DNA of 64,000 nt from Myxococcota bacterium (GCA_035541475.1 DATKND010000054.1:4069-68068), one strand, 5' to 3'. Counted from the first letter of the stretch, positions 45,198 to 64,000 are shown. Notes: generated by a model not told the origin, from the sequence alone. Translations and numbers: made by a program.

Positions 45198-46876
45198 GGT
45201 TCTTCGGAAGCGTTGCCCCGATCACGCGGAACGAAATCGCGCGCGAGGGCGTGGCGGCCCTCTCCCTCGCGTCGATGAACGTGCCCCAGGTGCTCGGCTA
45301 TACGCGCATCGCGGGCACGCCGCTCGTCACGGGGCTCTACACCGCACTGTTTCCTGTGCTGGCGTTCGCGCTCCTCGGCTCGTCGCGACACCTGGTGGTC
45401 GCGGCCGACTCGGCGACCGCGGCGCTGCTGTTCGGGTCGCTCTCTCACATCGCCGAGCCCGAGACTCCCCGGTACATGGCGCTGGTGGAGATCGTGGCGC
45501 TCTGGACCGCCGGTCTCCTGCTCGTCGCGCGGATCTTCCGGCTGGGATTCCTGGCGGACTTCCTCTCGCGCACCGTGCTGGTGGGCTTCCTCACCGGAGT
45601 CGGATTCCAGGTGGCCATCGCGATGCTCGGTGGAATGTCCGGCATCGCGTTCCGATCGTCGCGCACGGTCGCGCAGCTCGCGGAGCTGCTGCCCGCCCTC
45701 CCGCGGCTCCAGGCTCCGACGCCTGCGCTCTCCGCATTCGTCGCGGCCAGCATCCTCCTCGGTCGACGCCTGGTCCCGCGCTTTCCCGTCGCGCTGCTCG
45801 TGGTGGCCGGAACGATCTTCGCGAGCGCCGTCTTCGACCTCGGCGCCCGCGGCATCGCGGTCGTCGGCCCGGTACCGGGAGGCCTCCCGTCGTTCGTGCT
45901 GCCGAGCGCGACCTGGCACGATTGCTTCGCCGTCCTGCCGGTCGCGGCCTCGTGCTTCGTGATCATCATCGCGCAGAGCGCCGCGACGTCCCGCGCCTTT
46001 GCAGCCCGACACCAGGAGCGGGTCGACGAGGATGCCGACATCCTCGGGCTCTCGGTCGCGAATGCGGCGGCTGCCTTGAGCGGAGCCTTCGTCGTCAACG
46101 GCAGCCCGACGCAGACGGCGATGGCCGAGCGCGCGGGAGCGCGGAGCCAGCTCGCTCAGATCTTCTTCGCGGGCATCGTGCTGGTGGTGTTGCTCCTCCT
46201 GACGGGCGTGCTCGAGCATCTGCCGCGCTGCGTGCTCGCGAGCATCGTCTTCACAATCGCGGTGGGCATGATCGACTTGTCCGCGCTCCGGAGCATCCGT
46301 CGGGAGAGCCCGGGCGAGTTCCGCCTCGCGATGTTCACCGCGGCCGCGGTGATCGGGATGGGCGTCGAGGTCGGCGTCCTGCTGGCGATCGGTCTCTCAC
46401 TCCTTCGGCACGTGCGCCACAGCTATCGCCCGCACACGTCGATCGTCGTCTGGGACGACGCAGGACGGGCGAACCCCTTGGCCGTCGCTCCCGGCAGCGT
46501 GTCCGAGCCGGGGTTGATCGTCTACCGCTTCGGCGCCGATCTCTTCTACGCGAACGAAGCGCGTTTCGTCGACGAGCTGCGCGCCCTCGTGGAGCATGCG
46601 CCCGAGCCGGTGCGCTGGGTCGTCGTCGACGCGAGCGCGATCACCAACATCGACTACTCGGCCGCAGGGTCGGTCCGCGAGCTGATCGCCGACCTCTCGC
46701 AGCGAGGCGTCGGTCTCGTGTTCGGGCGCGTCTCTCCGGGCCTCCGCGCCGACCTCGAGCGCCACCGCGTGGTCGAGGCGCTCGGCGAGCATTGCGTGTT
46801 CGCCACGCTACACGAGGCGGTGGCTCGGGCGCGAGGCGAGGGCGCGTCTCATCCCCCCGCTCGCTTGACGGTGTAG
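45194..46876 (+). CDS. SulP-family anion transporter with a C-terminal STAS domain
   Basis: GTGA overlap with the upstream gene. VPQVLGYTRIAGTPLVTGLYTALFPVLAFALLGSSRHL. STAS region (VYRFGADLFYANE...VVVDASAITNIDYSA). Confidence 0.85.
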   Translation: MRFFGSVAPITRNEIAREGVAALSLASMNVPQVLGYTRIAGTPLVTGLYTALFPVLAFALLGSSRHLVVAADSATAALLFGSLSHIAEPETPRYMALVEIVALWTAGLLLVARIFRLGFLADFLSRTVLVGFLTGVGFQVAIAMLGGMSGIAFRSSRTVAQLAELLPALPRLQAPTPALSAFVAASILLGRRLVPRFPVALLVVAGTIFASAVFDLGARGIAVVGPVPGGLPSFVLPSATWHDCFAVLPVAASCFVIIIAQSAATSRAFAARHQERVDEDADILGLSVANAAAALSGAFVVNGSPTQTAMAERAGARSQLAQIFFAGIVLVVLLLLTGVLEHLPRCVLASIVFTIAVGMIDLSALRSIRRESPGEFRLAMFTAAAVIGMGVEVGVLLAIGLSLLRHVRHSYRPHTSIVVWDDAGRANPLAVAPGSVSEPGLIVYRFGADLFYANEARFVDELRALVEHAPEPVRWVVVDASAITNIDYSAAGSVRELIADLSQRGVGLVFGRVSPGLRADLERHRVVEALGEHCVFATLHEAVARARGEGASHPPARLTV

Positions 46877-47202
46877 CCGCGCGCCTCGAGCTCCGCGACG
46901 AGCAGGTCGCGGTGGTCGCCCTGGATCTCGATCACGCCGTCCTTGACCGAGCCGCCGGTGCCGCAGCGACGCTTCAGCTCGCTCCCGAGCTCGCGCAGCG
47001 CGTCGTCGGCGAGGCCGACGCCCGAGACCGTCGTGACCGTCTTGCCGTTGCGGCCCTTCACCTCGCGCCGCACGCGCACGACGCCGTCGCCGCGCGCCGC
47101 GCGCGGATTCGCCGTGCAGCTGCACTGCGCGACGGGCTTCGCGCAACGCGGGCACATGCGGCCGTGCGAGCTCGAGTAGACGATGCGATCGCGCCCGCTC
47201 AC
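46849..47202 (-). CDS. yciH: SUI1/YciH-family translation initiation factor-like protein
   Basis: GTGA overlap with the upstream gene. RIVYSSSHG...VRVRREVKGRNGKTVTTVSGV...LKRRCGTGGSVKDGVIEIQGDHRD. Confidence 0.8.
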   Translation of the reverse strand: MSGRDRIVYSSSHGRMCPRCAKPVAQCSCTANPRAARGDGVVRVRREVKGRNGKTVTTVSGVGLADDALRELGSELKRRCGTGGSVKDGVIEIQGDHRDLLVAELEARGYTVKRAGG

Positions 47203-47636
47203 GCGGGTCCCCGAGCCGCGTCGCCGATCAGGCGGCGATGCTCGACCATGATGCAGCGGTCCTGCACCACCGCGATGCCCGCCGCCTCGAGCCGCGCGGC
47301 GGAGGCGTCGTCGCGGATTCCCTCCTGGAGCCAGACGACGCGCGGCTTCCACCCGAGCGCCAGGATCTCGTCGGTGTGGGCCGGCAGGTGCGCTGGCGCG
47401 CGGAACACGTCGATCAGATCGGCCGGCGTGTCGAGCTCCGCGAGGCGCGGCACGCAGCGCTCGCCGAGCACCGACTCGAGCTTCGGGCTGACGGGCAGGA
47501 CGCGATAGCCGTGGCGCGTCAGATAGTGCGGCACGCGGTAGGCGTCGTCCTGCTCGCCCGCCTTGATGCCGAGCACCGCGATCGTGCGCGCGGATCCGAG
47601 CAGGCGGCGGAGCCCGGCGTCGTCGTCCACGGGCAT
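47199..47636 (-). CDS. CoA-binding domain protein (YccU/YneT-like)
   Basis: TIAVLGIKAGEQDDAYRVPHYLTRHGYRVLPVSP...DVFR...VWLQEG. Confidence 0.8.
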   Translation of the reverse strand: MPVDDDAGLRRLLGSARTIAVLGIKAGEQDDAYRVPHYLTRHGYRVLPVSPKLESVLGERCVPRLAELDTPADLIDVFRAPAHLPAHTDEILALGWKPRVVWLQEGIRDDASAARLEAAGIAVVQDRCIMVEHRRLIGDAARGPA

Positions 47637-47713
47637 GTCGTTCCTCGAAGAAGGGCTCGAGTGACTCGAGCGCGCCTCGACACCCCCGGAGCCGGCCCCT
47701 ACTGTACCGCGCC

Positions 47714-49081
47714 ATGCAAGCGACCCGGCGCGCGGCGCTGATTTTCCTCGGCGCGTGCTTCGCGCTTGCCAGCCCCGCCGCTCACGCGCTCGACGATCCG
47801 GCCGCGCACACGCGCGTGACGACTCTCGAGAACGGGCTCACCGTGCTGACCCTGGTCGACGACACCACGCCGGTGGTCTCGTTCCAGATGTGGGCGCACG
47901 TCGGCTCGCGCGACGAGACGCGTTATACCGGCCTCGCCCATCTCTTCGAGCACATGATGTTCGGCGGCTCGAAGAACGTCCCGGCCGAGGGACACGCACA
48001 GCTGCTCGGCGCGCGCGGCGGCGAGGTCAACGCGTACACGACGAACGACTACACCGTCTACTTCGACGACGTGACGACCGAGTCCATGCCGCTCGTGATC
48101 GACCTCGAGCACGAGCGCGTCGCGCACCTCGACATCGACGAGCCGACCCTGGCGCGCGAGCGCAAGGTGGTGCTGGAGGAGCGGCGCCTGCGCACCGAGG
48201 ACTCGCCGATGGGGCGCGCCTACGAGAACCTCTTCTCGCTGGTCTTCCAGGCGCTGCCCTATCGATGGCCGGTGATCGGCTGGCGCAGCGACATCGAGAA
48301 GGCCACGGTCGACGTCTGCCGGGGGTTCTTCGACCAGTACTACGTGCCGAACAATCTGGTGCTCGCGATCGTCGGCTCCTTCGACGAGGAGGCCGCGCTC
48401 GACCGCATCCGCCGCACCTTCGGCACGCTGAAGCCCGTGCCGAACATCCCGCGCAGTCCGACCGAGGAGCCGAAGCAGCAGGGCGAGCGTCGCGCGACGG
48501 TGTATTTCGATCTGCGGGCGCCGATCCTGGCGGCCGGATGGCACGCCCCGCCGACGGGACATCCCGACGGAGAGGCGCTCGACGTGCTCTCGACGATCCT
48601 CTCCGAGGGCCGCTCGAGCCGGCTCTACCGCAGCCTCGTCTACGACGCGCAGCAGGCCCTCTCCGCCGAGGGCGGCTACTGGGAGCTCGAGGAGGCCGGC
48701 GTGTTCCTCGCCTTCGCCTCGGTGCGTCCCGACGCCTCCATCGACCGCGTCGAGAAGCTCTTCTTCGACGAGATCGAGCGCCTGAAGCGCGAGCCCCCCA
48801 CCGCGGACGAGCTCGACAAGGCCAAGCGACAGCTCGAGGTGTCGCTAGTCGACGGGCTCGATACGAACCACGAGCTAGCCGAGCGCATCGGCCGCGACTA
48901 CACGACCCTCGGCCGCATCCGCCCGCTCGACGAGCGGCTCGAGCGCATCCGCGCCGTGACCGCGGAGGACGTGCGGCGCGTCGCGCAGACCTATCTGGTG
49001 AAGGACCAGCGAAGCGTCGTGCACATCGTGCCGGCGCCGAAGGGCGTCCCGCCCGCCGGCGCGGGCGAGAGCACACCGTGA
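47714..49081 (+). CDS. M16 (pitrilysin-family) zinc peptidase, active-site subunit
   Basis: Signal peptide. Inverted zinc motif GLAHLFEHMMFGG (HxxEH). Confidence 0.85.
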   Translation: MQATRRAALIFLGACFALASPAAHALDDPAAHTRVTTLENGLTVLTLVDDTTPVVSFQMWAHVGSRDETRYTGLAHLFEHMMFGGSKNVPAEGHAQLLGARGGEVNAYTTNDYTVYFDDVTTESMPLVIDLEHERVAHLDIDEPTLARERKVVLEERRLRTEDSPMGRAYENLFSLVFQALPYRWPVIGWRSDIEKATVDVCRGFFDQYYVPNNLVLAIVGSFDEEAALDRIRRTFGTLKPVPNIPRSPTEEPKQQGERRATVYFDLRAPILAAGWHAPPTGHPDGEALDVLSTILSEGRSSRLYRSLVYDAQQALSAEGGYWELEEAGVFLAFASVRPDASIDRVEKLFFDEIERLKREPPTADELDKAKRQLEVSLVDGLDTNHELAERIGRDYTTLGRIRPLDERLERIRAVTAEDVRRVAQTYLVKDQRSVVHIVPAPKGVPPAGAGESTP

Positions 49082-50549: not shown

Positions 50550-51737
50550 TCATCCCGCGGCGTCGCTGGCGCTGTCGGGACTCGACACGGGCCGCGGCAC
50601 CACGTCGATTCGGACGGGCGGTGTCAGCTCCTCGCGGCCGCCCGCGCCGAGCTCGCGCAGCTTGCGCGCCTGCGGCAGCACGCGCGACTCGAAGGAGCCG
50701 ACCGCCGTGTTGAAGTGCGCGACGGAGCGCTCGAGCGCGCCGCCGAGACGGCCGAGGTGCCCCGTCAGTCCCACGAGCCGATGCTCCATCTCGCGGGCGA
50801 GCTCGAGGACCTGGCGCGCGCCGTCGGCGAGACGCTGCTCGCGCCAGCCGTGCGCGACCGCGGCGAGCAGCGCGTAGAGCGTCGCCGGCGTCGCGACCAC
50901 GACGCCGCGCGCGAGCGCATCGGCGACGAGCGCGCTGTCGTGCTCGACGGCGGCGCCGAGGAAGCCCTCGTGCGGCAGGAAGAGCACCACGAACTCGGGG
51001 CTGCGCTCGAGCCGCTCGGCGTAGCCGCGCCCGGCGAGCGCCTCGACGTGGCGCTTCACGTGACCCGCGTGGCGCGCGAGCGCCCGCTCGCGCTCTTCGG
51101 GCCCCTTTGCCTCCACCGCCTCGAGGTAGGCGTCGAGCGGCGCCTTCGCGTCGACCGCGATTTCGCGGCCGCCCGGCAGCCGCACCAGCAGATCGGGCCG
51201 CGCGGCGCCGGCGCCCGCGCCGAGCGAGACCTGCTCGGCGAAGTCGCAGTGCGCGGACAGCCCCGCGAGCTCGACGGTGCGCCGCAACGTCAGCTCGCCC
51301 CAGCGGCCGCGCGAGCCCGGCGCGCGCAGCGCGTGCGCGAGGTCGGAGGTCTGCGCTGCGAGCGCGCGCAGCTGCTCGCTCATCTGACCGCCGTGCAGCG
51401 CGCGCAGCCGCTCGACCTCCTGAGCCTCGCGCTGGTAGTGCGCGAGCGCGTCGCGGAGCGGTGTCACCACGTCCTCGATCGACTGGCGCCGCCCGCTCCA
51501 GTCCGCGGTCGAGGCGTCCTGGAGCGCGCGGAAGCGCTCGGCCGCGAGCGCGAGGAAGCCCTCGTTGTTCTGGCGCAGCGCCTCCGCCGCGACGGCCTGG
51601 AAGGCGTCGCGCAGCGCGTGCCGTCGTCGCGCGGCGAGCCACACCGCCGTGGCGCTCGTCGCGACCACCGCGACAGCCAGCCCGATGAAGAGGGCCGGAA
51701 ATCCCCCGGCCGCGATCTCCGTCCAGAGCGTCTGCAT
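50550..51737 (-). CDS. rmuC: DNA recombination protein RmuC
   Basis: ATG 51737 with GGGAGGA 6 nt upstream. N-terminal TM helix, a coiled region, then RGRWGELTLRR..., RPDLLVRLPGGREIAVDAKAP, FVVLFLPHEGF. Confidence 0.85.
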   Translation of the reverse strand: MQTLWTEIAAGGFPALFIGLAVAVVATSATAVWLAARRRHALRDAFQAVAAEALRQNNEGFLALAAERFRALQDASTADWSGRRQSIEDVVTPLRDALAHYQREAQEVERLRALHGGQMSEQLRALAAQTSDLAHALRAPGSRGRWGELTLRRTVELAGLSAHCDFAEQVSLGAGAGAARPDLLVRLPGGREIAVDAKAPLDAYLEAVEAKGPEERERALARHAGHVKRHVEALAGRGYAERLERSPEFVVLFLPHEGFLGAAVEHDSALVADALARGVVVATPATLYALLAAVAHGWREQRLADGARQVLELAREMEHRLVGLTGHLGRLGGALERSVAHFNTAVGSFESRVLPQARKLRELGAGGREELTPPVRIDVVPRPVSSPDSASDAAG

Positions 51738-51807
51738 GGCGAATCCTCCCCGAGATGTCCGGCGGAGAGGATCGGGCGGGGGTGTGACAGATCCGGTCAC
51801 AGAGGCG

Positions 51808-51867
51808 GGGCGAGGCAGAGGCCCCGAAGAGGAACCCATGGCCGCCGCAGGGGCCTCTGCCTCGCCC
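51808..51867 (-). terminator. Perfect 18-bp inverted repeat, probable operon terminator hairpin
   Basis: GGGCGAGGCAGAGGCCCC (51808..51825) pairs with GGGGCCTCTGCCTCGCCC (51850..51867), with a 24-nt loop. It begins 17 nt after the CoA-transferase stop. No U tract. Confidence 0.5.
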
Positions 51868-53131: not shown

Positions 53132-54799
53132 TCAGCGCGCGGCGCCAGATTCCGAACGGAGTCGCGCGCGGAGATCGACCTTGCGGATCTTGCCCGAGGC
53201 CGTCCTCGGGAAGTCCGTCACGAATTGCAGCTCCTCGGGCCACTTCTGCCGCGCGAGCCCGACTCCGGACAAATGCGCGGTGACCACAGCGAGTGTCACG
53301 GGAGCGACGCCTGGCAGCATGCGCACGATCGCGCACGCGTGCTCGCCGAGGCGCGCGTCGGGCGCGGCCACCACGGCGACCTCGGCGACACCGGGCAGCG
53401 TGTGCAGCGCCTGCTCGATCTCGGCCGCGGAGAGGTTCTCGCCGCCGCGAATGATGATGTCCTTCATCCGGTCGGTGATGGTCAGGAAGCCGCCCTCGTC
53501 GAGTACGCCGACGTCGCCGGTGTGGTACCAGCCCTCGTCGTCGAACGCCGCGGCGGTGAGCGCCGGGTCCGTGTACCCGAGGCAGAGATCCGGGCCGCGC
53601 GAGAGGATCTCTCCGGGCGTGCCGGGCGGTACGTCGGCGCCGCCCTGGTCGACGAGGCGCAGCTCGACGCGAGGACACGCGCGCCCGTCGGTGCGGTGGC
53701 GGCGGTCCGCCAGATCCTCGAAGGTGCAGCCCGTCGTCGACGGATGCTCCGTCGATCCGTACGAGCGGATCAGGGTGATGCCGTGCGAGGCCGCCCGCTC
53801 GGCGAGCGCGATCGGCACGGGCGCGCCGCCGAGCCCGATCCGGCGCATCAGCGCGGCGTGCGCGGGCGTGAAGTCCGGGTGATCGAGCAGGCTCGCGAGG
53901 AAGACCGAGGCGCCGCTGCCCGAGCCGATGCGCGCCTCGAGCATCACCTCGAGCGCGTGCGCCGGATCCCAGCGGTCGATCAGGTGGATGTCCCCGCCCG
54001 TCGCGAGCGGACCGAGCACCGCGCCGAGCATCCCCGTCGCATGCGTGACCGGCGAGCCGATCAGATTCGGCTTGCCGGGCGTCATCCAGCTCTTCATGTG
54101 GCGGAGCTCGGCGAGCATCGTGCGGTGATCGTGGATCACGCCCTTCGGATCCGCGGTGGTGCCGGAGGTGTAGGCGAGCACCGCGACCTCGTCGGGCTCC
54201 ACGACCGGGAGATCGGTCGCTGGTGTCCGCTGCGCACACGCCGACCAGCCGATGCGCGTGACGCCGTGGGGGATCGGAGGCGCTTCACGGTCTTCTCCGA
54301 TCACGACGTGCAGCCGGAGCGAGCGCGGAGCCGCGGTCGCGACGATCGCGTCGTAGTCGACATGGCCGTACGCGGGCGGCGAGATGTAGGCCACCGCGCC
54401 GCTCTGCTCGAGGATGAAGCCGACCTCCTTGCGGCCGTAGATGTGGACGATCGGCACCAGCACGTAGCCGCCGAGGGCCAGCGCCGCGAACGACACCACG
54501 GCCTCGCGCCAGTTAGGGAGCTGGAAGGCGACGGCCTCGCCGGGCTGCACGCCCATCTCGCGCAGCAGCGCGACCAATCGCCGCGCCTCGGCGTCGACGT
54601 CCGCATAGCGACCCCGCCAGCCGCGCGAGCGCGACCACACGGCGATCGTCGCATCGGGATGCGCGGCGAGCCGGCGAGCGACCATCGCGCCCAGGGTGTC
54701 GTGGATCCACCACCCGGTGTCGACGTACGCCTTCTCGAGGTCGGGCGGGACCCGGCGCACGCGGAAGCGACCGGCCGCGCGATCCCGATCGACGCGCAT
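53132..54799 (-). CDS. AMP-dependent acyl-CoA synthetase/ligase
   Basis: LAYTSGTTADPKGV, YGSTE, GWYHTGD, and the ASGKIRK C-terminal motif. Confidence 0.85.
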   Translation of the reverse strand: MRVDRDRAAGRFRVRRVPPDLEKAYVDTGWWIHDTLGAMVARRLAAHPDATIAVWSRSRGWRGRYADVDAEARRLVALLREMGVQPGEAVAFQLPNWREAVVSFAALALGGYVLVPIVHIYGRKEVGFILEQSGAVAYISPPAYGHVDYDAIVATAAPRSLRLHVVIGEDREAPPIPHGVTRIGWSACAQRTPATDLPVVEPDEVAVLAYTSGTTADPKGVIHDHRTMLAELRHMKSWMTPGKPNLIGSPVTHATGMLGAVLGPLATGGDIHLIDRWDPAHALEVMLEARIGSGSGASVFLASLLDHPDFTPAHAALMRRIGLGGAPVPIALAERAASHGITLIRSYGSTEHPSTTGCTFEDLADRRHRTDGRACPRVELRLVDQGGADVPPGTPGEILSRGPDLCLGYTDPALTAAAFDDEGWYHTGDVGVLDEGGFLTITDRMKDIIIRGGENLSAAEIEQALHTLPGVAEVAVVAAPDARLGEHACAIVRMLPGVAPVTLAVVTAHLSGVGLARQKWPEELQFVTDFPRTASGKIRKVDLRARLRSESGAAR

Positions 54800-54800
54800 G

Positions 54801-56402
54801 TCAGGCGAGATCCGCCGCGGCGCGCGCGCGCAGCTCGTCCTTCACGACCTTGCCGGTCGCGTTGGTGGGCAGGGCTGGCACGGCCACCACGTGCCGCGGG
54901 ACCTTGTAGTTCGCGAGTCGCTCGCGCGCCCAGCCGATGATCGCGGCGGCGTCGACGGAGCGCCCCGGCGCGGCGACGACGTACGCCATCGCGACCTCGC
55001 CCATGCGCGCGTCGGGCACGCCGATCACCGCGACCTGACCGATGGACTCGTGCGCGAGCAGCGCATTCTCGACCTCGGCCGGGTACACGTTGAAGCCGCC
55101 GACGATCAGCATGTCCTTCGAACGCCCGACGATGCGGACGTAGCCGCGCTCGTCCATCGTCGCCAGATCACCCGTGTGCAGGAAGCCGCGCGCGTCGATG
55201 GCCGCGGCCGTCGCCTCCGGATCGTCGAGGTAGCCCTGCATCACGCTGTAGCCGCGGACGAGCAGCTCGCCCGTCGTCCCGCGCTCTACTTCCTCTCCCT
55301 TCGTGTCGGCCACGAGGATCTCGAGGCCGTCCATCGCGCGCCCGGCCGTCGTCGCGATCGTCTCGGCGTCGTCATCCGGTCTCGACCCCGTGCACGTGCC
55401 GGCCTCGGTGAGCCCGTAGCCGGTGAGGATCGAGCGGAACGGCAGCTCCGCGCGCATCTCGCGGATCAGCTCGACGGGGATGTCGGCCGCACCGGTGACG
55501 GCGACCCGCAAGGTGCGGAGGTCGAACTTCTTGCGGTCGCGGTGGTCGAGGATCGAGCGGTAGACGGTGGGTGCCCCGGGCAGCACGGTGATTCGCTCCT
55601 TCTCGACCAGGGACAGGACTTCGGGAACGTCGAAGACGGGAACCGGGACGATCGTCGCGCCTCGCAAGAGACACGCGAGCCACCCTGCCTTGTACCCGAA
55701 CATGTGGAAGAACGGGTTTACGATCAGATAGCGATCGTCCCGACGGAGCCCGGCGAAATCGCACCACTGCCGGAACTGCTCGACGGTCTGGCCGTGGGTC
55801 ATGACGACGCCCTTCGGTCGGCCCGTCGTGCCGGACGTGAACAGCACGTCGCTCGGGTCGCCTGGTCGGACGCCGGCCCGGCGCTCCGCATGCGCGGCGG
55901 CGGAGACTTCGCGCGCGCGCGCCGTGAAGACGTGCCAGCTCACGACCTCGACACCCTTCGGCGCCTCCCCGGCGCGCGCCGAGCCGTCGAGCAGCACGAT
56001 CCGGCGCAGGTGGGGAAGCGGCGCGCCGACCGCGCCTAGCATCGCGACCGGATCGATGCCGAGGAAGCCGATCGTCGTGACGAGCAGCATCGCCTTCGAA
56101 GCCGACAGCACGTACGCCGCTTCCGCGCCCTTGAAGCGCATGTTGATCGGCACGAGCGACGCGCCGGCGGATTGCGCGCCGAGCGCGGCCACGATCCAGC
56201 CGAGCCCGTTCGGCGCCTGGATCGCGACGCGATCTCCCGGCTGCACGCCGGCCGCGATCATCGCGCGCGTCGAGATGCTCACGAGCTCGCCGAGCTCGCG
56301 GTAGGTGACGCGTCGAGCGCGCTCCACGACGGCCTCGGCATCGGGCCGCGCCGCGATGCTCGCCGCCACGGCGCCGGGGATCGTCTCCTGCTCGCTCCTC
56401 AC
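54801..56402 (-). CDS. AMP-dependent acyl-CoA synthetase/ligase (FadD3-like)
   Basis: GTGA overlap with the thiolase stop. VLFTSGTTGRPKGV, GYGLTE, GFLHTGD, ATGKVVK. Confidence 0.85.
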   Translation of the reverse strand: MRSEQETIPGAVAASIAARPDAEAVVERARRVTYRELGELVSISTRAMIAAGVQPGDRVAIQAPNGLGWIVAALGAQSAGASLVPINMRFKGAEAAYVLSASKAMLLVTTIGFLGIDPVAMLGAVGAPLPHLRRIVLLDGSARAGEAPKGVEVVSWHVFTARAREVSAAAHAERRAGVRPGDPSDVLFTSGTTGRPKGVVMTHGQTVEQFRQWCDFAGLRRDDRYLIVNPFFHMFGYKAGWLACLLRGATIVPVPVFDVPEVLSLVEKERITVLPGAPTVYRSILDHRDRKKFDLRTLRVAVTGAADIPVELIREMRAELPFRSILTGYGLTEAGTCTGSRPDDDAETIATTAGRAMDGLEILVADTKGEEVERGTTGELLVRGYSVMQGYLDDPEATAAAIDARGFLHTGDLATMDERGYVRIVGRSKDMLIVGGFNVYPAEVENALLAHESIGQVAVIGVPDARMGEVAMAYVVAAPGRSVDAAAIIGWARERLANYKVPRHVVAVPALPTNATGKVVKDELRARAAADLA

Positions 56403-57541
56403 AGCGACAGGATCGACACGCCCGCGACGCCGGGAGCGCCGTACAGCTGCGTGTAGCCGACCTTCGGATCGCCGGGCACCTGTCGCTCACCCGCGCGTCC
56501 GCGGAGCTGGAGCACGACCTCGTGCACCTGGCGCAGCCCCGACGCGCCGATCGGCTCGCCGTTCGCGAGGAGACCCCCGTCGGTGTTGACCGGCAGCCCG
56601 CCGCCGATCTCGAGCTCGCCTTCCGCCACCAGCTTCTCCTGCTCGCCGTCGGCGCAGAAGCCGTTCTCGGCGAGGTGGATCACCTCGGCGCCGGCGTCCG
56701 TGTCCTGGAGCTGGATCACGTCCACGTCCTCGGGACCGATCCCGGCCGTCTCGTAGGCCGCGCGCGACGCGTCGACGGTCGGGCCCGACGTCTCCTCGAT
56801 CGGCAGCCACGGGCTGTGCACCTCGAAGGCCCCGAGCCGGCGCGTGCGGACCGCGCTGGCGCGGAGGTAGATCGGCTTGTCGGTGTAGCGGTGTGCGCGG
56901 TCGGCGCGGCACAGCACGACGGCCGCGGCGCCCTCGTCGGGGCTGCAGAACATGTACTGCGTGAGCGGATGGTTCAGCATCCGCGATCCGAGGATCTCCG
57001 CCTCCGAGAGCGGCTTGCGGCGGAAGGCGTTCGGGTTGAGAGCGCCGTTGCGGTAGCTCTTCGCGGCGACGCGCGCGAGCGTCGCCTGCGAGATGCCGTG
57101 GTCGTGCATGTACTTGTTGATCTTCATCCCGAAGAACTTGGTCGTGACGAACTGACCGAGCTCCCCGTACCACGACGGACACGCGTACAGGCGCGGATCG
57201 GAGCTGAAGGCGCCGGGCGGATGCTTGTCCATGCCGACGGCGATTCCGAGGTCGGAGTCGCCGAGCCGGATCGTGCTCGCCGCCAGATTCAGCACGCTCG
57301 CCGCGGTCGCGCAGCCGTTGTAGACGTTGTTGAACGGGATACCCGTGAGGCCGAGCAGCGCGACCACCGCGTCCGGGTTGTCGATCTCGTAGCTCCCGGC
57401 GAACGCGAACTGGATGTCGCGCCACGCGACGCCGGCGTCGGCGAGCGCGCGGCGGATCGCGATGGCGCCCATCTCGATGCCGGTCACGTCCTTGAAACGG
57501 CCGAACGGATGCAGCCCGACTCCGACGATCGCGACGTCCAC
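56399..57541 (-). CDS. Thiolase-fold lipid-transfer (SCP-x/Ltp-type) protein
   Basis: MDVAIVGVGLHPFGRF, NNVYNGCATAA, and a C-terminal GEPIGASGLRQ. Confidence 0.8.
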   Translation of the reverse strand: MDVAIVGVGLHPFGRFKDVTGIEMGAIAIRRALADAGVAWRDIQFAFAGSYEIDNPDAVVALLGLTGIPFNNVYNGCATAASVLNLAASTIRLGDSDLGIAVGMDKHPPGAFSSDPRLYACPSWYGELGQFVTTKFFGMKINKYMHDHGISQATLARVAAKSYRNGALNPNAFRRKPLSEAEILGSRMLNHPLTQYMFCSPDEGAAAVVLCRADRAHRYTDKPIYLRASAVRTRRLGAFEVHSPWLPIEETSGPTVDASRAAYETAGIGPEDVDVIQLQDTDAGAEVIHLAENGFCADGEQEKLVAEGELEIGGGLPVNTDGGLLANGEPIGASGLRQVHEVVLQLRGRAGERQVPGDPKVGYTQLYGAPGVAGVSILSL

Positions 57542-57562: not shown

Positions 57563-57979
57563 CTAGCTCACCGGCCGGAACGCGAAGGTGACGACTTCGT
57601 TGCCGTCGCCGTCGGTGCGGAACGGCACGACCACGAGCTCCATGTCCATGCCGATGCGGAGCCCGTCCGCCTGGGTGAGGCGCGCTTCGACCCGCACCTC
57701 GTCGCCGAGCTCGACGTAGCCGACGCCGTACGGCACGAACGCGTCGCCCGTCGGCCCCGCGTAGGGTGGCGACGGCGGCGGAAAGTCCTGCGTGGTCCAG
57801 GCCCAGAGCCGTCCGCGCCGGGGCAGCAGGCGCTCGGCCATCTCGGTCGACGCGCAGCGCGGACAGGAGTCCTGCGCGGGGAAGGTCACGATGCCGCACG
57901 CGGCGCACCGGCTCCCGATCAGCTGCGGATCGTCAGCGGGCCAGGTGAACACGCCCTTCGCCACGGGGATTCGCGCCAT
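57563..57979 (-). CDS. DUF35 Zn-ribbon/OB-fold protein (thiolase/aldolase partner)
   Basis: The ATG shares 1 nt with the upstream TGA. Zn ribbon CAACGIVTFPAQDSCPRC followed by an OB-fold-length tail. Confidence 0.8.
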   Translation of the reverse strand: MARIPVAKGVFTWPADDPQLIGSRCAACGIVTFPAQDSCPRCASTEMAERLLPRRGRLWAWTTQDFPPPSPPYAGPTGDAFVPYGVGYVELGDEVRVEARLTQADGLRIGMDMELVVVPFRTDGDGNEVVTFAFRPVS

Positions 57980-58812
57980 CACTTCTTCTTCCACAGATCC
58001 GGATCGTTCCACGCGCGGTCGAGCGGCCGCATGCCGCCGCCGTATGCCGTGAACTGCGTCATGCCGAGAAGCTCCATCGTCTGTCCGTACCCCAGGTCGT
58101 TGACCGCGGCGCGCTTGAACTCCTGGACGAAGGTCCGGCGCGTGTGGCGGAGCACCATCGGCGAGAAGCGCAGCAGATAGCGCGCGATCTCCCAGGCGCG
58201 ATCCATCAGCGCCGCCCGCGGCAGCACCTCGTTCACCGCGCCCCACTCGTGCGCCATCTGCGCCGTGATCTTCTGTCCCATCAGCTGCGCATAGCGCCAG
58301 CGATTGCGGCCCAGCACCAGCGGCCAGATGTTCTGGATGCCGTCGCCGGGAGAGAGGTTCCGCGGGAAGTGCGCCATGTCCTGGAACCACGCGTCGTCGG
58401 AGGCGAGCACGATGTCGCACATCAGCGCCAGTTCGGAGTGGATGTTCGACGGCCCGTTCACCGCCGCGATCATGATGGCATCGATCTCCAGCAGATTGAT
58501 GTGCCGGAGCCGCCCGTACCATCCCATCTCCTCCGCCCACTCGGGCGGACCCGCGAACGCTGGCCGATTGCTCTCGCGTCCCCACGTCGCGTTGAACGTG
58601 TCGCCGGTGCCGGTGTAGATGACGACGCGCACGTCGCGATCGCCCGCGACGTCGTTGAAGAGATTCGCGATGTCGTGATGCGTGCGCTCGTCCCACACCG
58701 CGGGGCCGCCGTCGCGGTGCATGCGCATCAGCAGGATGCCATCGTCGGTCTTCTCGAGCGCGAAGTCGGGGTACCGGTCGCGGTACTCCTCGAAGCGGGT
58801 CAGGCGCGGCAC
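57979..58812 (-). CDS. Enoyl-CoA hydratase/isomerase (crotonase) family protein
   Basis: GTG start. VRVVIYTGTGDTFNA, then the crotonase-fold length. Confidence 0.75.
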   Translation of the reverse strand: MPRLTRFEEYRDRYPDFALEKTDDGILLMRMHRDGGPAVWDERTHHDIANLFNDVAGDRDVRVVIYTGTGDTFNATWGRESNRPAFAGPPEWAEEMGWYGRLRHINLLEIDAIMIAAVNGPSNIHSELALMCDIVLASDDAWFQDMAHFPRNLSPGDGIQNIWPLVLGRNRWRYAQLMGQKITAQMAHEWGAVNEVLPRAALMDRAWEIARYLLRFSPMVLRHTRRTFVQEFKRAAVNDLGYGQTMELLGMTQFTAYGGGMRPLDRAWNDPDLWKKK

Positions 58813-58831: not shown

Positions 58832-59167
58832 TCACGGGCGCGGCTCGCGGATGCGGTCGATGCGTGCGGATCCGCAATCGACGACTTCCGGCTGTCGCCA
58901 CACTTCCACCGCGTACGACACCATGAGCAACGAGTGCAGGAGCTGGAGCAGGCGCAGGGCGTCGGCCGGCAGGTCGTCGAGCGGGAAGCGTTCGCACCAG
59001 GCGATCGCCTCCTCGGCGCGCGGGAAGAAGGCGTCGTAGAAGGCCTGCAGCTCCGGCATCGGGCTCGCGAGGCGACGCGCCCAGCGCTCGGGCTCCGTCG
59101 CCAGACACCACGTGCGCGCCCACGGCTCGAGCGCCGCGAAGGCGGCCGGAAGGAGGGCGTCGCTCAT
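58832..59167 (-). CDS. Small conserved partner of Rieske oxygenase 1 (111 aa, unknown family)
   Basis: ATGA overlap with the Rieske stop. It is a clear paralogue of 62633..62971, sharing WCL..EP.R.A.RLAS.M.E.Q.FYDA..PRAEEAI.....FP.DDLP.DALRLL.LL.SL......VE.WRQP. Confidence 0.7.
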   Translation of the reverse strand: MSDALLPAAFAALEPWARTWCLATEPERWARRLASPMPELQAFYDAFFPRAEEAIAWCERFPLDDLPADALRLLQLLHSLLMVSYAVEVWRQPEVVDCGSARIDRIREPRP

Positions 59168-60432
59168 CGCGTCGCCTCCGCGGCGCGTTCGCGCCAGGCC
59201 TCGACCCAGTCGCCGACCGTCTTGTGGAAGTGGCGGACCAGGATCTCCTGGTCGCAGAGCGGGAACTCGGCGAACGCGCGCTGCTCGAGCCCCATCTGCG
59301 TGCCGTCGAGCGTGCCGCAGTCTCGCAGGCCGTACTCCTTGAACGTCAGCGCGGCGTACTCGTGCGCGAGCCGCTCGCGAGCCGTGCGCGCCGGCGCGAA
59401 GTGGAGATCGCCCTCGAAGACGTGCGTGTGGTGCGACGTCGGCCAGTAGCGATACGTGACGTACCAGCCGCGCTCGTAGATCAGCATCTCGAGATTCGGG
59501 AAGACCTGGAAGTTGTCGATGCCCCAGCGCGACGTGCCCGACGGGTTGACACCGGCGAGCGGGCCGAGATCCGGCGCGTCCCATGGGCCCGTGTTCCCGC
59601 TGCGCGTCAGCGCCTCGGCCGGGTAGAGGTGCTCCTTCGGCCAGGTGTGCTTGTGCGTGCCGCTCGTCGACACCATGCGGTGAGGGCCGTCGATCTGGTA
59701 GTGCGCGGCCTCGAACGGGTACTCCGGGTTCCGCGCCTCCGGGGTCGGGCCGAGCTGGTGCGTGTGCAGCGGCGCGACGTGGTAGTACTCCTGGAAGGCG
59801 TCGACGAAGATCTTCCAGTTGCTCCCGTTCTCCGCGCGGAACGAGTAGCGCTCGGTCATCCGCTCGAAGGGATAGCCCTCGAGCGCGCCGACCATCGGCC
59901 CGAGGTAGTCGCGCAGGCTCCACTCCGGCTCGCGGGCCAGGTTCACGAAGATGAAGCCGGCCCACGTGTCGCAGTGGACCGGCGCGAGGCCGAGCGCGTC
60001 CTTGCGCAGCCCGAAGAACTCGTTCTCCTGGTGCACGTAGGTGCAGACGCCGTCGAGGCCGTAGCGCCAGCCGTGGTACCGACAGACGAGCTGGCGCGCG
60101 CGGCCGCACGCCTCGCCTCGCGGCGTGCCGTCCCACACCAGCTTGTTGCCGCGGTGGCGACACACGTTGTGCAACGCGCGGATCCGACCGTCCGCCGCAC
60201 GGGTCACGAGGATCGACGTCCCGACACCGGGCAGATCCTTCGTGAAGAACGTCCCGTCCCGATCGAGCTGCTCGACGCGACCGACGTTCAGCCAGGCCCG
60301 CTTGAAGATCGCCTCGCGCTCCTGCTCGAAGAACGCGGGCGAAACCGAGTCCTCGAACGAGACGAGGCCCGTGCCGAGCTCGGGATGGTGCGCCGTCCAG
60401 CTGCCCTCCGGCGGCCTCGCGAAACGCGCCAT
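59164..60432 (-). CDS. Rieske [2Fe-2S] non-heme-iron oxygenase, alpha-type subunit (copy 1)
   Basis: ATG with GGAGG 5 nt upstream. Rieske motif CRHRGNKLVW...CRYHGWRY. Catalytic-domain motif DAFQEYYHVAPLH. Confidence 0.85.
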   Translation of the reverse strand: MARFARPPEGSWTAHHPELGTGLVSFEDSVSPAFFEQEREAIFKRAWLNVGRVEQLDRDGTFFTKDLPGVGTSILVTRAADGRIRALHNVCRHRGNKLVWDGTPRGEACGRARQLVCRYHGWRYGLDGVCTYVHQENEFFGLRKDALGLAPVHCDTWAGFIFVNLAREPEWSLRDYLGPMVGALEGYPFERMTERYSFRAENGSNWKIFVDAFQEYYHVAPLHTHQLGPTPEARNPEYPFEAAHYQIDGPHRMVSTSGTHKHTWPKEHLYPAEALTRSGNTGPWDAPDLGPLAGVNPSGTSRWGIDNFQVFPNLEMLIYERGWYVTYRYWPTSHHTHVFEGDLHFAPARTARERLAHEYAALTFKEYGLRDCGTLDGTQMGLEQRAFAEFPLCDQEILVRHFHKTVGDWVEAWRERAAEATR

Positions 60433-60498
60433 CCTCGCCTCCGCGTCCCGTGGCCGTCACGCCGCCGGGAATGCCATTCTCTCGTTCCGAGAACATTG

Positions 60499-60528
60499 TT
60501 GCATAGACGGTCGCGCCTGGTCCATAAT
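60499..60528 (+). promoter_or_regulatory. Sigma-70-like promoter candidate
   Basis: TTGCAT-N18-CATAAT in the 133-bp divergent intergenic region. The -10 element ends 37 nt before GTG 60566. Confidence 0.35.
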
Positions 60529-60565
60529 CGCGCGACCGCAACGCATCGGGGGCAGCGGAGGCAGC

Positions 60566-61315
60566 GTGGGCGACCGGGTCGCGGTGGTGACGGGGGCCGC
60601 GTCGGGCATGGGGCTCGCGATCGCCCGGCACTTCGCGGCGCTCGGCGATCGCGTCGGCCTGCTCGACCGCGACGGCGACGCGGCGCTGCGCGCGGCCAAG
60701 GATCTGCGCGAGGCGGGCGCCTCCGCGCTCGCCATCGAGACCGATGTCACCGACCGCTGCGCCGTCGACGCCGCCTTCGACGAGGTGCGCGCGCAGCTCG
60801 GACCCGTCGCGATCGCGGTCACGAGCGCGGGCCTCGATGCGTTCGAGCCATTCACGAAGATCTCGCCGGAGAGCTGGGAGCGCGTCGTCGCCGTCAACCT
60901 GACCGGCACGTTCCACTGCCTCCAGGCCGCGGTGCCCGACATGCTCGCGGCCCGCTGGGGCCGCATGGTCACGATCGCGTCGTCGAGCGCGCAGTCGGGC
61001 GCCGCGCGCATGGCGCACTACGTCGCGTCCAAGGCGGGTGTGATCGGGCTGACGAAGGCGCTCGCACTCGAGCTCGCGCCGTTCGGGATCACCGTCAACA
61101 CGATTCCGCCGGGCATGATCGACACGCCGATGCTGCGGCGCGCCGAGGCCGCCGGCGACGTGATGAAGCTCGAGAAGCTCGTCCCGCGCATGATCCCGGT
61201 CGGACGAGCCGGAACTCCCGAGGACATCGCGGCGACGTGCGGCTTCCTCTGCTCGGACGAGGCGGGCTTCATCACCGGTCAGGTCGTCGGCGTCAACGGC
61301 GGGATGGTCCTTTGA
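60566..61315 (+). CDS. SDR-family oxidoreductase (FabG-like)
   Basis: GTG 60566 with GGAG 5 nt upstream. VAVVTGAASGMGLAIA, YVASKAGVIGLTKALALE, VNGGM. Confidence 0.85.
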   Translation: MGDRVAVVTGAASGMGLAIARHFAALGDRVGLLDRDGDAALRAAKDLREAGASALAIETDVTDRCAVDAAFDEVRAQLGPVAIAVTSAGLDAFEPFTKISPESWERVVAVNLTGTFHCLQAAVPDMLAARWGRMVTIASSSAQSGAARMAHYVASKAGVIGLTKALALELAPFGITVNTIPPGMIDTPMLRRAEAAGDVMKLEKLVPRMIPVGRAGTPEDIAATCGFLCSDEAGFITGQVVGVNGGMVL

Positions 61316-61331
61316 ACGAGGAGGCGCGGAG

Positions 61332-62636
61332 ATGTCCGAAGCCCTGAAGGTCCCGAAGCAAGCGGCGAGGCAATACCCGAAGCCTCCCGAGGGAAGCTGG
61401 ACGGAGCATTATTCCGAGCTCGACACCGATCCGGTGTCGTACGAGAGCTCGATCTCTCCCAAGTTCTTCGAGCTCGAGCGCGAGGCGATCTTCAAGCGGG
61501 CCTGGCTGAACGTCGGGCGGGTCGAGCAGCTGCGGCGCAAGGGCAGCTACTTCACGCGGGAGCTCGCGGTGGCGAAGGCCTCGCTGATCATCGTCCGGGG
61601 CATGGACGACGAGATCCGCGCCTTCCACAACGTGTGCCGCCACCGAGGCAACAAGCTGGTCTGGAGCGAGGACCCGCGCGTGGAGACGAGCGGCAGCTGC
61701 CGCCAGTTCGCGTGCAAGTACCACGGCTGGCGGTACGAGCTCGATGGGAAGCTCTCGTTCGTGCTCCAGGAGGGCGAGTTCTTCGGGATCGACAAGAGCC
61801 GGTACGGCCTGGTGTCGGTCCACTGCGCGGTGTGGAAGGGGTTCATTTTCGTGAACCTCGCCGAGCAGCCGGCCCAGTCGCTGCGCGAGTACCTCGGACC
61901 GATGATCACCGCGATCGACTATCCGTTCGAGAAGCTGACACAGCGGTACTACTACCGAGGCGACATCCGCAGCAACTGGAAGGTCTTTCTCGACGCGTTC
62001 CAGGAGTTCTACCACCCGCCGATCCTCCACGGGCGGCAGAACCCGGTCATGCGTCAGGCCGACTACCGCGACAAGGGCTTCTACACGAGTCACTTCCAGA
62101 TCGACGGCCCGCATCGCGTCGGCTCCACGAGCGGAGGCGCGGGCGGCAAGCTGGTGCCGGAGTTCTACAACCCGATCGAGCAGGTGATGCGTAGCGGCCT
62201 GTTCGGTCCCTGGGACGCGTCCGAGATCGTGACCGGCCAGCTGCCGCCGGGTCTCAATCCGGGCAAGAAGAAGAACTGGGGTCTCGACTCGTTCCAGATC
62301 TTCCCGAACTTCGCGATCGTGTTCTGGGAGACGGGCTGGTACCTCACCTATCACTACTGGCCCGTCGCGCACGATCGGCTGATCTTCGAGGCGAACGCCT
62401 ACTTCACGCCGCCGCGCAATGTGCGCGAACGCCTCGCCCAGCAGCTCGGCATCGCGACCATCAAGGAGTACGCGCTCGAGGACTGCGGCACGCTCGAGGC
62501 GACGCAGATGGGGCTCGAATCGCGCGTGGTCTCGACCTTCCCGCTCGGCGACCAGGAGTTCATGTGCCGACACCTGAACCGGGTCGTCCACAACTGGGTC
62601 GAGGACTACCAGCGAAAGCAGGCGGAGGGCCGATGA
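61332..62636 (+). CDS. Rieske [2Fe-2S] non-heme-iron oxygenase, alpha-type subunit (copy 2)
   Basis: CRHRGNKLVW...CKYHGWRY and DAFQEFYHPPILH. Collinear with copy 1 over its full length. Confidence 0.85.
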   Translation: MSEALKVPKQAARQYPKPPEGSWTEHYSELDTDPVSYESSISPKFFELEREAIFKRAWLNVGRVEQLRRKGSYFTRELAVAKASLIIVRGMDDEIRAFHNVCRHRGNKLVWSEDPRVETSGSCRQFACKYHGWRYELDGKLSFVLQEGEFFGIDKSRYGLVSVHCAVWKGFIFVNLAEQPAQSLREYLGPMITAIDYPFEKLTQRYYYRGDIRSNWKVFLDAFQEFYHPPILHGRQNPVMRQADYRDKGFYTSHFQIDGPHRVGSTSGGAGGKLVPEFYNPIEQVMRSGLFGPWDASEIVTGQLPPGLNPGKKKNWGLDSFQIFPNFAIVFWETGWYLTYHYWPVAHDRLIFEANAYFTPPRNVRERLAQQLGIATIKEYALEDCGTLEATQMGLESRVVSTFPLGDQEFMCRHLNRVVHNWVEDYQRKQAEGR

Positions 62637-62971
62637 TGGGCGCTGCGCGGCTGCCGGCCGAGTTCTCCGATCTCGAGCGCTTCGTCCACGACTGGTGCCT
62701 CGACGGCGAGCCCCAGCGCTACGCCAAGCGCCTCGCCAGCACGATGGACGAGATCCAGGAGTTCTACGACGCGATCATGCCGCGCGCCGAGGAAGCGATC
62801 CGCTATCTCGAGAAGTTCCCGATCGACGATCTTCCGGACGACGCGCTCCGGCTGCTCAAGCTGCTGTACTCGCTGATCGTGATCTCGTTTCCCGTCGAGA
62901 TCTGGCGGCAGCCCCAGATCCCGGATACGCACCTGGCCCAGTTCGAGCTGAAGATCGAACCGCTCCCGTGA
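62633..62971 (+). CDS. Small conserved partner of Rieske oxygenase 2 (112 aa, unknown family)
   Basis: ATGA overlap with the Rieske stop. Paralogue of 58832..59167. Confidence 0.7.
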   Translation: MMGAARLPAEFSDLERFVHDWCLDGEPQRYAKRLASTMDEIQEFYDAIMPRAEEAIRYLEKFPIDDLPDDALRLLKLLYSLIVISFPVEIWRQPQIPDTHLAQFELKIEPLP

Positions 62972-63414
62972 GCGGCAACCCGCAGCGGATCGCCGACCTC
63001 GTCGAGATCCACGCGCTGTGCGCGCGCTACATGGCGTACGCGAGTCGCTTCGTGCTCGACCGCTGGCTCGACGTCTTCACGCCGGACATCGAATACAGCG
63101 CCTTCGGCACGGCGTTCACGCTCGAGCGCTTTCCCGCGCTGCTGGAAGCGGCGCCGCGCGGCCAGTTCATCGGCAACATGCCGGTGGTCGAGCTCGACGG
63201 CGATCGCGCGACCGGCACGCAGCACTTCGTGTTCATCGACCAGCGGACGCACGCGATGCGCCTCGGCTGGTATCGCGACGAGTACGTGCGCACGGCGGAC
63301 GGATGGCGAATCCGTCGGCGCGCGACCACGTTCCTGCGCAAGCACGGCGGAGTCGACTCTGGGCGGCAGCACGATCCGCTCGCGGCGCCCGAGCCGGGAC
63401 GAGACGACGGCTGA
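62968..63414 (+). CDS. SnoaL/NTF2-like fold protein
   Basis: GTGA overlap. IADLVEIHALCARYMAYASRFVLDRWLDVFTPDIEY...TGTQHFVFID...YRDEYVRTADGWRI. Confidence 0.65.
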   Translation: MSGNPQRIADLVEIHALCARYMAYASRFVLDRWLDVFTPDIEYSAFGTAFTLERFPALLEAAPRGQFIGNMPVVELDGDRATGTQHFVFIDQRTHAMRLGWYRDEYVRTADGWRIRRRATTFLRKHGGVDSGRQHDPLAAPEPGRDDG

Positions 63415-63417
63415 CGC

Positions 63418-64000
63418 GTGTCGCGAACGGCGGTGATCACCGGAGCGGGCGGCGGCATCGGGCTCGCCTGCGCGCGCCGGCTCGGCGCGAGCGGACACCG
63501 ATTGGTGCTGGCCGAGGTGGACGCGCAGCGACTCACAGCGGCCGGGAGCGAACTCGAGAAGGCGGGTCTCTCCGTCGACGGGGTTGGCTGCGACGTCACG
63601 GACGCCGAGGCCGTGCGGCGGCTGGCCGAAGCCTCGTCGGCGGCGGGCGAGCTCGGCTGCCTCGTCCACACGGCCGGCCTCTCGCCGGCCATGGCGTCCG
63701 GCGCTCGCATCCTCGACGTGAACCTCGTCGGAACGGCGCGACTGCTCGAGGCGTTCCTGCCGCTCGCCGAGCGGGGATCGGTGGCGGTCTGCGTCGCGTC
63801 GCAGGCCGGCCATCTCGCGGCCGCCGCCGCCACTCCCGCGATCGACGCGGTGCTCGACGATCCGCTGCGTCCCGACTTCGCGTCGCGCTTCGCGGCGCTC
63901 GGCGCCGCGCTCTCCGAGCCCGCCCCGGCCTACGCCCTGTCGAAGCGCGGCGTGATCCGGCTGGCGTCGCGCTCGGCGCCGGCCTGGGGAGCTCGCGGTG
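63418..64000 (+). CDS. SDR-family oxidoreductase (3' end outside window)
   Basis: My own translation from GTG 63418 gives VSRTAVITGAGGGIGLACARRLG...VHTAGL...YALSKRGV. The frame is open to the window end and is not in the ORF track. Confidence 0.75.
   Translation, partial: MSRTAVITGAGGGIGLACARRLGASGHRLVLAEVDAQRLTAAGSELEKAGLSVDGVGCDVTDAEAVRRLAEASSAAGELGCLVHTAGLSPAMASGARILDVNLVGTARLLEAFLPLAERGSVAVCVASQAGHLAAAAATPAIDAVLDDPLRPDFASRFAALGAALSEPAPAYALSKRGVIRLASRSAPAWGARG

Follow-up and report, generated by a model that had tools for sequence, protein, structure and literature searches.

What is a protein of about 111 amino acids (aa) doing directly behind each of two Rieske oxygenase genes? The question is raised by a 64,000-nucleotide (nt) stretch of DNA from a Myxococcota bacterium (GCA_035541475.1, DATKND010000054.1:4069-68068; 'the window' throughout), in which two genes for Rieske alpha subunits stand divergently around a short-chain dehydrogenase/reductase (SDR) gene and each runs into the start of a small open reading frame (ORF). 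To our knowledge, the textbook components of such oxygenases are solely alpha-only and alpha/beta, and a full-text literature search returned no description of a small Rieske partner of this kind. Judging from genomic association, we propose that the small protein is, with a probability of about one in two, a stoichiometric structural accessory subunit that binds the alpha subunit of one Rieske subfamily. The oxygenase itself is of a known kind; with its clade-defining, predicted helical partner, its architecture is a variant that had gone unrecognised.

Two alpha genes, each coupled to a member of one small-protein family

The original prediction for this locus described collinear, paralogous Rieske genes divergent around the SDR gene, each followed by an ATGA-overlapped small ORF, and this description holds in every part: all ORFs lie where they had been placed, both junctions are present, and the two alpha copies share 53% identity over 421 residues (E 2e-168), with PF00355 and PF00848 in both. 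A GGAGG stands 5–7 nt 5' of the ATG of both small ORFs. The two small proteins align end to end, ungapped, with 56% identity (E 2e-37), and the consensus string that had been read from them matches.

Homologues in a 90%-clustered collection number 1,011 for copy 2 and 2,014 for copy 1, nearly all of them exactly 111 aa long, and because each small ORF has 1,000–2,000 same-length homologues, both are far beyond chance. A profile search of a 50%-clustered library retrieved 1,268 clusters at E <= 0.001, 741 of them at E <= 1e-10, and the family is encoded in at least 572 species genomes. Its carriers are Myxococcota, Actinomycetota and Pseudomonadota as well as metagenome-assembled genomes (MAGs) labelled Limnocylindria, Spirochaetales and Thermodesulfobacteriota; they include many Mycobacterium, Mycolicibacterium, Nocardia and Actinomadura, together with Acidimicrobiia, and the family is also plasmid-borne in Rhodococcus, Streptomyces, sphingomonads, Cupriavidus and Acinetobacter.

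In NCBI these proteins go by the name 'hypothetical protein', among them VMW19_07670 of a Myxococcota MAG, to which the product of small ORF 2 is 100% identical. UniRef calls some mycobacterial members (Mycolicibacterium, 108–109 aa, for example WP_088305530.1) 'Xaa-Pro dipeptidase', a spurious label that probably spilled over from a neighbouring amidohydrolase gene.

The small gene is tied to one alpha clade

A hidden Markov model (HMM) of the small family, run over 113 related loci, gave 169 occurrences of the small gene. It is immediately preceded by an alpha gene on its own strand in 164 and immediately followed by one in a single case, so that the two are adjacent in 165 of 169, which bears out the co-occurrence with related Rieske genes that the original prediction had expected. 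The single reversed order, small-alpha, is found on a Cupriavidus pinatubonensis plasmid, and the remaining four occurrences comprise two at a contig end, where there is no upstream sequence, and two short partial matches. Among the 142 pairs that could be reconstructed, the distance from the alpha stop to the small start is -4 nt in 73 and 1–11 nt in nearly all others. Where a genome holds two pairs, partners also keep to type, with 53 small-1/alpha-1 and 80 small-2/alpha-2 pairs (133 concordant, 9 discordant). MAGs assigned to other phyla contain the window's divergent two-pair arrangement in its entirety.

Plasmid-borne alpha homologues show where the association ends. All 15 that were found by tblastn at E <= 1e-44 (31–57% identity) have the partner (HMM E 1e-23 to 1e-48); at E 1e-31 to 1e-40, none of the four examined has it within 3 kb, these being from Acaryochloris, Diaphorobacter (an alpha-PDR arrangement), Rhodococcus USK13 and Sphingobium TKS, where alpha is truncated by IS6100. 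The small family is tightly and specifically tied to one alpha clade.

On plasmid pRSMS1 of Sphingobium sp. RSMS (locus L107, 525..6449), two copies of ISRsp3, an insertion sequence (IS) of the IS21 family, enclose a lone alpha-small pair; the arrangement looks like a composite-transposon-like minimal unit.

A predicted four-helix protein without a recognised relative

The small protein had been held to be something other than a classical beta subunit and to be of an unrecognised type, and the searches agree on both points. None of the marks of a beta subunit is present: in place of an NTF2-type alpha+beta cone of about 150–190 aa with a PF00866 or NTF2-clan profile match, there are 111 aa, predicted to be all-helical. 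Pfam-A (E <= 1) and NCBIfam contain no match for the two window proteins or for 60 diverse members, and neither a narrow nor a broad profile of the family matches any PDB sequence.

Structure prediction of the small protein alone, which had been suggested as a check, gave a model for small ORF 2 (AlphaFold, 150-sequence alignment; predicted local distance difference test (pLDDT) 84, predicted template-modelling score (pTM) 0.71) with four helices, at residues 9–21, 26–35, 38–59 and 69–91, no strands and a low-confidence tail. Foldseek of this model against PDB reached only E 3 at best and found no resembling solved fold.

Across the wide family (median identity 41% in the alignment), the positions conserved in at least 80% of members are L7, P8, F11, L14, W21, R29, R33, F44, Y45, A47, P50, P68, L74 and L77, that is, hydrophobic and aromatic residues and prolines, plus R29 and R33. 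No Cys/His pattern of the sort expected of a ferredoxin or electron-transfer protein is conserved across that alignment, and the single cysteine, C22, is not conserved. Read from the alignment, such a pattern marks a fold or an interface rather than a redox centre or an active site. The C-terminal tail (92–112) is conserved in close relatives yet modelled with low confidence, as expected for a segment that would become ordered on a partner. Overall, conservation of the small protein is similar to that of the alpha subunit.

The alpha subunit is a canonical Rieske oxygenase

The alpha subunit has an N-terminal Rieske domain (CxH...CxxH) and a catalytic domain in which a 2-His-1-carboxylate site is accompanied by a bridging acidic residue; both copies carry the complete set of ligands. 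In copy 2 numbering, the Rieske ligands C102, H104, C128 and H131 are invariant in 78 alpha homologues and also in distant pairs; H228, H233 and D384 of the catalytic domain are likewise invariant, D384 being the putative carboxylate ligand of the iron. E225, also invariant, lies three residues before the first His ligand and aligns with the Glu of the CntA motif 'MECYH'.

The AlphaFold model of copy 2 (pLDDT 78, pTM 0.85) has the canonical alpha fold and matches the alpha chains of Stc2, CntA, BPDO and TPADO with a Foldseek probability of 1.00. By sequence the closest solved relatives are CntA, Stc2 and 3n0q (E about 1e-24). An attempt to place alpha in the alpha-only or the alpha/beta class from its model was dropped, as the Foldseek E-values are nearly equal (about 1e-20 to alpha3-only enzymes versus 1e-19 to 1e-18 to alpha3beta3 enzymes). 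Scores of 102–117 bits against the NCBIfam GbcA cut-off of 670 show that it is not a member of the CntA/Stc2/GbcA group, and because of this score and the conserved second gene attached to it, we place it outside that alpha-only group.

One loop of alpha copy 2, at residues ~286–318 (window ~62187..62285; RSGLFGPWD...GLNP...WGxD), is highly conserved within the clade and modelled without regular secondary structure at modest confidence; our guess from the model is that it could be a docking surface. N309, within this loop, is present in 13/13 partner-bearing sequences compared and in 0/3 partner-less ones. A list of partner-specific alpha residues (L30, H99, P180, N309, R367 and R413) was set aside as too thin, with three partner-less sequences for contrast.

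The pair persists while pathways and electron donors change

The genes around the pair differ greatly between lineages. In Myxococcota the context is a coenzyme A (CoA) pathway with ECH, DUF35, thiolase and CoA-ligase genes; in Mycobacterium triplex it consists of amidohydrolase, MarR, Fer2 ferredoxin, TauD and CMD genes; in Acinetobacter formamidase and StyA-like monooxygenase genes form an indole-monooxygenase-like cluster. Rhodococcus has a bare alpha-small-PDR/VanB reductase unit, and Cupriavidus a small-alpha-PDR reductase unit with the order of the pair flipped. An SDR gene adjoins or neighbours the pair in most lineages, which is compatible with a diol dehydrogenase for the step that follows oxygenation.

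Electron donors near the pairs vary as well, from PDR/VanB fusions and an FNR/Fer2 fusion to a separate Fer2 ferredoxin or a Rieske ferredoxin with a reductase. For the window itself, the remark that no ferredoxin or reductase is encoded stands: five reductase/ferredoxin probes came back empty in tblastn, and in a motif scan the two alphas were the sole carriers of Rieske motifs. A plant-type ferredoxin motif match in an 83-aa ORF of the window was judged spurious. That remark reaches only to the window's edge, however, since the same contig encodes, 6.8 kb past position 62971 and outside the window, a 337-aa reductase with FAD_binding_6, NAD_binding_1 and Fer2 domains (L102 17163..18176), likely the electron donor of both window oxygenases.

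An NTF2-like gene sometimes follows

The reading of copy 2 as an alpha gene with a coupled small partner stands as far as the coupling goes and needs amending in one respect, namely that an NTF2-fold (SnoaL_4) gene, omitted earlier, is itself GTGA-coupled behind small ORF 2. SnoaL_4 belongs to the same clan as PF00866, but the similarity of this protein to beta subunits is faint (PF00866 at E 0.12, 12.8 bits versus a cut-off of 27; AndAd at 6e-06, 25.9 versus 230). The SnoaL_4 gene is kept behind small-2-type genes in Myxococcota and related MAGs, and the order alpha-small-NTF2 recurs on Acinetobacter and Variovorax plasmids, whose alphas are ~32–34% identical to those of the window.

Across the 169 occurrences, an NTF2/SnoaL-like gene is a facultative neighbour. 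In 18 of them, among which are window copy 2, Acinetobacter and Variovorax, no more than 60 nt separate it from the small gene, and in 11 others it is within 3 kb; Novosphingobium, Sphingomonas, Paroceanicella and Azospirillum have one inside that distance. In 130, no NTF2-like ORF was found at the locus. None accompanies window copy 1, the mycobacterial pairs or the minimal plasmid units, and gene-by-gene annotation of the M. triplex locus likewise gave none. Where such genes do occur, the proteins of different lineages are barely alike.

Weighing a structural subunit against other roles

The pair persists across pathways and electron donors, occurs as a minimal mobile unit, belongs to one clade and is tightly coupled, and the small protein has alpha-like conservation and no cofactor or catalytic signature; for these reasons, the data speak for a role that is inherent in the oxygenase component itself. 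As a structural subunit, the small protein would be made in step with alpha by means of the stop/start overlap and the internal Shine-Dalgarno site, would fold as a four-helix unit and would bind alpha, probably 1:1, to give an alpha3-gamma3-type oxygenase. There it might take over the structural role that the NTF2-fold beta subunit has in alpha3beta3 enzymes, which is to keep the trimer intact and/or to give the catalytic domain its shape, while being itself neither electron carrier nor catalyst; electrons would come from the separate FNR/plant-ferredoxin fusion reductase. Somewhat short of even odds, in our estimate, is the wider proposal that this amounts to a third Rieske quaternary architecture, in which alpha would pair obligatorily with an all-helical subunit of new fold (alpha3-gamma3) in at least 570 species, many environmental mycobacteria among them, and to which some lineages would add an NTF2-like protein (alpha-beta-gamma).

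Several observations weigh against a structural subunit. The closest solved alpha relatives, CntA and Stc2, are stable alpha3 trimers that are not known to have a partner, so the structural need is not obvious. Where an NTF2-fold gene follows, as in copy 2 and some distant lineages, a beta-like role may already be filled and the small protein may be doing another job. The C-terminal tail is not conserved in the wide family. Apparent natural fusions from metagenomes (P0253, P0291, P0299, P0264, P0325 and P0257), in which the C-terminus of alpha, the small protein or genes nearby are joined, proved to be frameshift artefacts with Arg-rich out-of-frame stretches, and P0465 (549 aa), also considered as a fusion, is instead an alpha with an N-terminal extension. 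Finally, pairwise identities of alpha and small protein correlate at r 0.92–0.94, but the neighbouring SDR, taken from the same loci as a control, correlates with alpha at r 0.96; co-divergence does not discriminate, and because the control matches, the alpha-small correlation says nothing about contact and this mirror-tree argument was discarded.

How, then, might such a protein serve alpha other than as a lasting subunit? One answer, which we consider rather unlikely, is a transient assembly or maturation factor, comparable to DmpK and MmoD of diiron monooxygenases, that would bind nascent alpha, help it to fold, to be loaded with Fe-S or Fe(II) or to form trimers, and be absent from the mature enzyme. 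Adjacency, coupling and clade-specificity suit this equally well, as do the lack of a cofactor motif and the fact that the closest solved relatives of alpha are not known to require a lasting partner. Yet chaperone-like proteins are usually sub-stoichiometric and less conserved, whereas this protein is nearly as conserved as alpha, and stop/start coupling favours equimolar synthesis. Another answer, to which we give still less credence, is an effector or adaptor that docks on alpha and either gates access of substrate or O2 or mediates docking of the reductase or ferredoxin for better coupling, by analogy with the MmoB/DmpM-type effectors of diiron monooxygenases. That the pair occurs alongside quite different electron donors is in keeping with this, and where an NTF2-like protein is present as well, as in some systems, the small protein could have a role other than a structural one; a reductase adaptor should co-vary with reductase type, however, and the same small family occurs with every type. 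We also know of no effector protein in any Rieske oxygenase, which counts against it.

Two further readings we regard as very improbable. The small protein could be an independent enzyme or binding protein of the pathway, such as an isomerase or a substrate or product carrier, that is merely co-transcribed with alpha. Since it belongs to no recognisable family, some other activity is conceivable, and R29 and R33 are conserved polar residues; these are too few for an active site, though, and a pathway-specific enzyme or carrier is disfavoured because the pair persists across unrelated pathways and electron donors, stays alone between IS elements in Sphingobium RSMS, and keeps the small gene beside alpha in all but the contig ends and partial matches. 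The enzyme could also have three subunits (alpha, the small protein and an NTF2-like beta), with the NTF2 gene elsewhere in the genome where it is not adjacent. The alpha-small-SnoaL_4 order in very distant lineages (window copy 2, Myxococcota and related MAGs, Acinetobacter, Variovorax), the NTF2-like genes no more than 3 kb away in Novosphingobium, Sphingomonas, Paroceanicella and Azospirillum and the faint beta-subunit similarity of the window's SnoaL_4 protein speak for such a complex. Against it stand the 130 of 169 occurrences and the M. triplex locus where none was found, the absence of an NTF2 gene from copy 1, from the minimal alpha-small-reductase units and from the IS-flanked alpha-small unit, and the slight likeness between the NTF2 proteins of different lineages.

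Locus layout and neighbouring genes

The genes discussed here and their neighbours are given in Table 1. The first SDR gene runs in the same direction as alpha copy 2, the second starts directly after the SnoaL_4 ORF, and the enoyl-CoA hydratase gene is kept behind copy-1-type pairs in related loci. Taken together, the two alpha/small pairs, the SDR and the CoA-ligase, hydratase and thiolase-DUF35 genes probably form a catabolic cluster whose substrate is CoA-activated.

Table 1. Positions in the window of the two alpha/small pairs and of neighbouring genes
Feature	Position	Strand	Details
Two acyl-CoA synthetase (AMP-binding) genes	53132..56402	-	PF00501 1.9e-86 and 1.9e-60
Thiolase-like (SCP-x/Ltp type) protein	56399..57541	-	Thiolase_C_1 1e-33
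ChsH2-type zinc-ribbon/OB (DUF35) protein	57563..57979	-	PF01796 and PF12172
Enoyl-CoA hydratase, 19 nt past small ORF 1	57979..58812	-	277 aa; ECH_1 4.1e-23
Small partner (predicted helical), copy 1 (small ORF 1)	58832..59167	-	111 aa; ATGA overlap with alpha 1 stop
Rieske oxygenase alpha, copy 1	59164..60432	-	422 aa; PF00355 6.5e-14, PF00848 4.5e-39; Rieske motif CRH...CRYH
SDR, between the divergent alpha genes, directly 5' of alpha copy 2	60566..61315	+	249 aa; adh_short_C2 1.7e-63; gene call also on locus L102
Rieske oxygenase alpha, copy 2	61332..62636	+	434 aa; PF00355 and PF00848
Small partner (predicted helical), copy 2 (small ORF 2)	62633..62971	+	112 aa; ATGA overlap with alpha 2 stop
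SnoaL_4 / NTF2-fold protein	62968..63414	+	148 aa; PF13577 5e-20; GTGA overlap with small ORF 2 stop
Second SDR, runs off the window end	63418..64000	+	tblastn SDR match 63421..63813; 277-aa gene call on the longer contig (locus L102)

Upstream of the catabolic cluster, and apparently unrelated to it, are an RmuC-family gene (window 50550..51839, minus strand) and a gene for a protein with a C-terminal SUI1 domain (46849..47715, minus strand). A block that is conserved beside the cluster in three lineages (L102 11628..13908; L005 8818..11284; L008 634..2980) holds one gene resembling COX4_pro, another resembling COX3, and two ORFs of ~235 aa each, for which Pfam gave no match. On some Myxococcota-type contigs (L005 1133..5831; L010 1011..5781), two pairs are separated by AveC_like, CbbQ/MoxR-type AAA, VWA and 3beta-HSD/epimerase genes.

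Comparison with known systems

Like the beta subunit of alpha3beta3 oxygenases (PF00866), the small protein is encoded directly after alpha by a coupled gene, has no cofactor and is presumed to have a structural role; unlike that subunit (~150–190 aa, an alpha+beta cone), it has 111 aa, is predicted to be all-helical and can coexist with an NTF2-fold gene. For alpha, the nearest solved sequence (E 8e-25 to 2e-23) and fold (Foldseek E ~1e-20) are those of CntA, Stc2 and GbcA (PDB 6y9c, 3vca), which share the Glu three residues before the first His ligand. CntB and GbcB, the reductases of CntA and GbcA, are of FNR/Fer2 type, as is the reductase on the window's contig. CntA, Stc2 and GbcA are not known to have a small partner, and the present alphas differ from them also in an identity of only ~20% and in contexts that are not quaternary-amine pathways.

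That a Rieske oxygenase complex should depend on an additional protein that is neither NTF2-like nor catalytic has a precedent in NdmE, the glutathione-S-transferase-like structural subunit of the caffeine N7-demethylase NdmCDE. NdmE differs in having a glutathione-S-transferase fold and about twice the size and in being confined to one pathway, and it has no sequence or fold similarity to the small protein. Diiron monooxygenases also have accessory proteins (MmoB/DmpM, DmpK/MmoD, PaaB) of ~90–140 aa, cofactor-less and encoded in oxygenase operons, which bind the hydroxylase; these serve enzymes of another superfamily and share no detected homology with the small protein, so the analogy is one of role only. 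The 'four-component' PicB oxygenase is a classical system of ferredoxin, reductase, large and small subunits.

As for the pathway, the route for ibuprofen and other arylalkanoyl-CoA compounds uses the ligase IpfF, the dioxygenase IpfAB (classical alpha/beta), the thiolase-like IpfD and the DUF35 protein IpfE. The window similarly has genes for acyl-CoA ligases and Rieske oxygenases together with those for a thiolase-like and a DUF35 protein, a likeness in the types of gene. By this analogy, the gene set suggests oxygenation of a CoA thioester that may be followed by removal of the side chain.

Implications

Rieske oxygenases are among the main bacterial enzymes that attack aromatic and other recalcitrant substances, and much engineering has been devoted to them for biocatalysis. 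If the small protein is indeed a subunit, expression or annotation has probably been incomplete for an entire branch of them, with the partner filed as 'hypothetical' or, wrongly, as 'Xaa-Pro dipeptidase', which would account for failures to obtain activity with alpha and reductase alone. Its confirmation would also offer a new protein fold and a new interface for study, and the small gene would provide a simple genomic marker of this Rieske subfamily.

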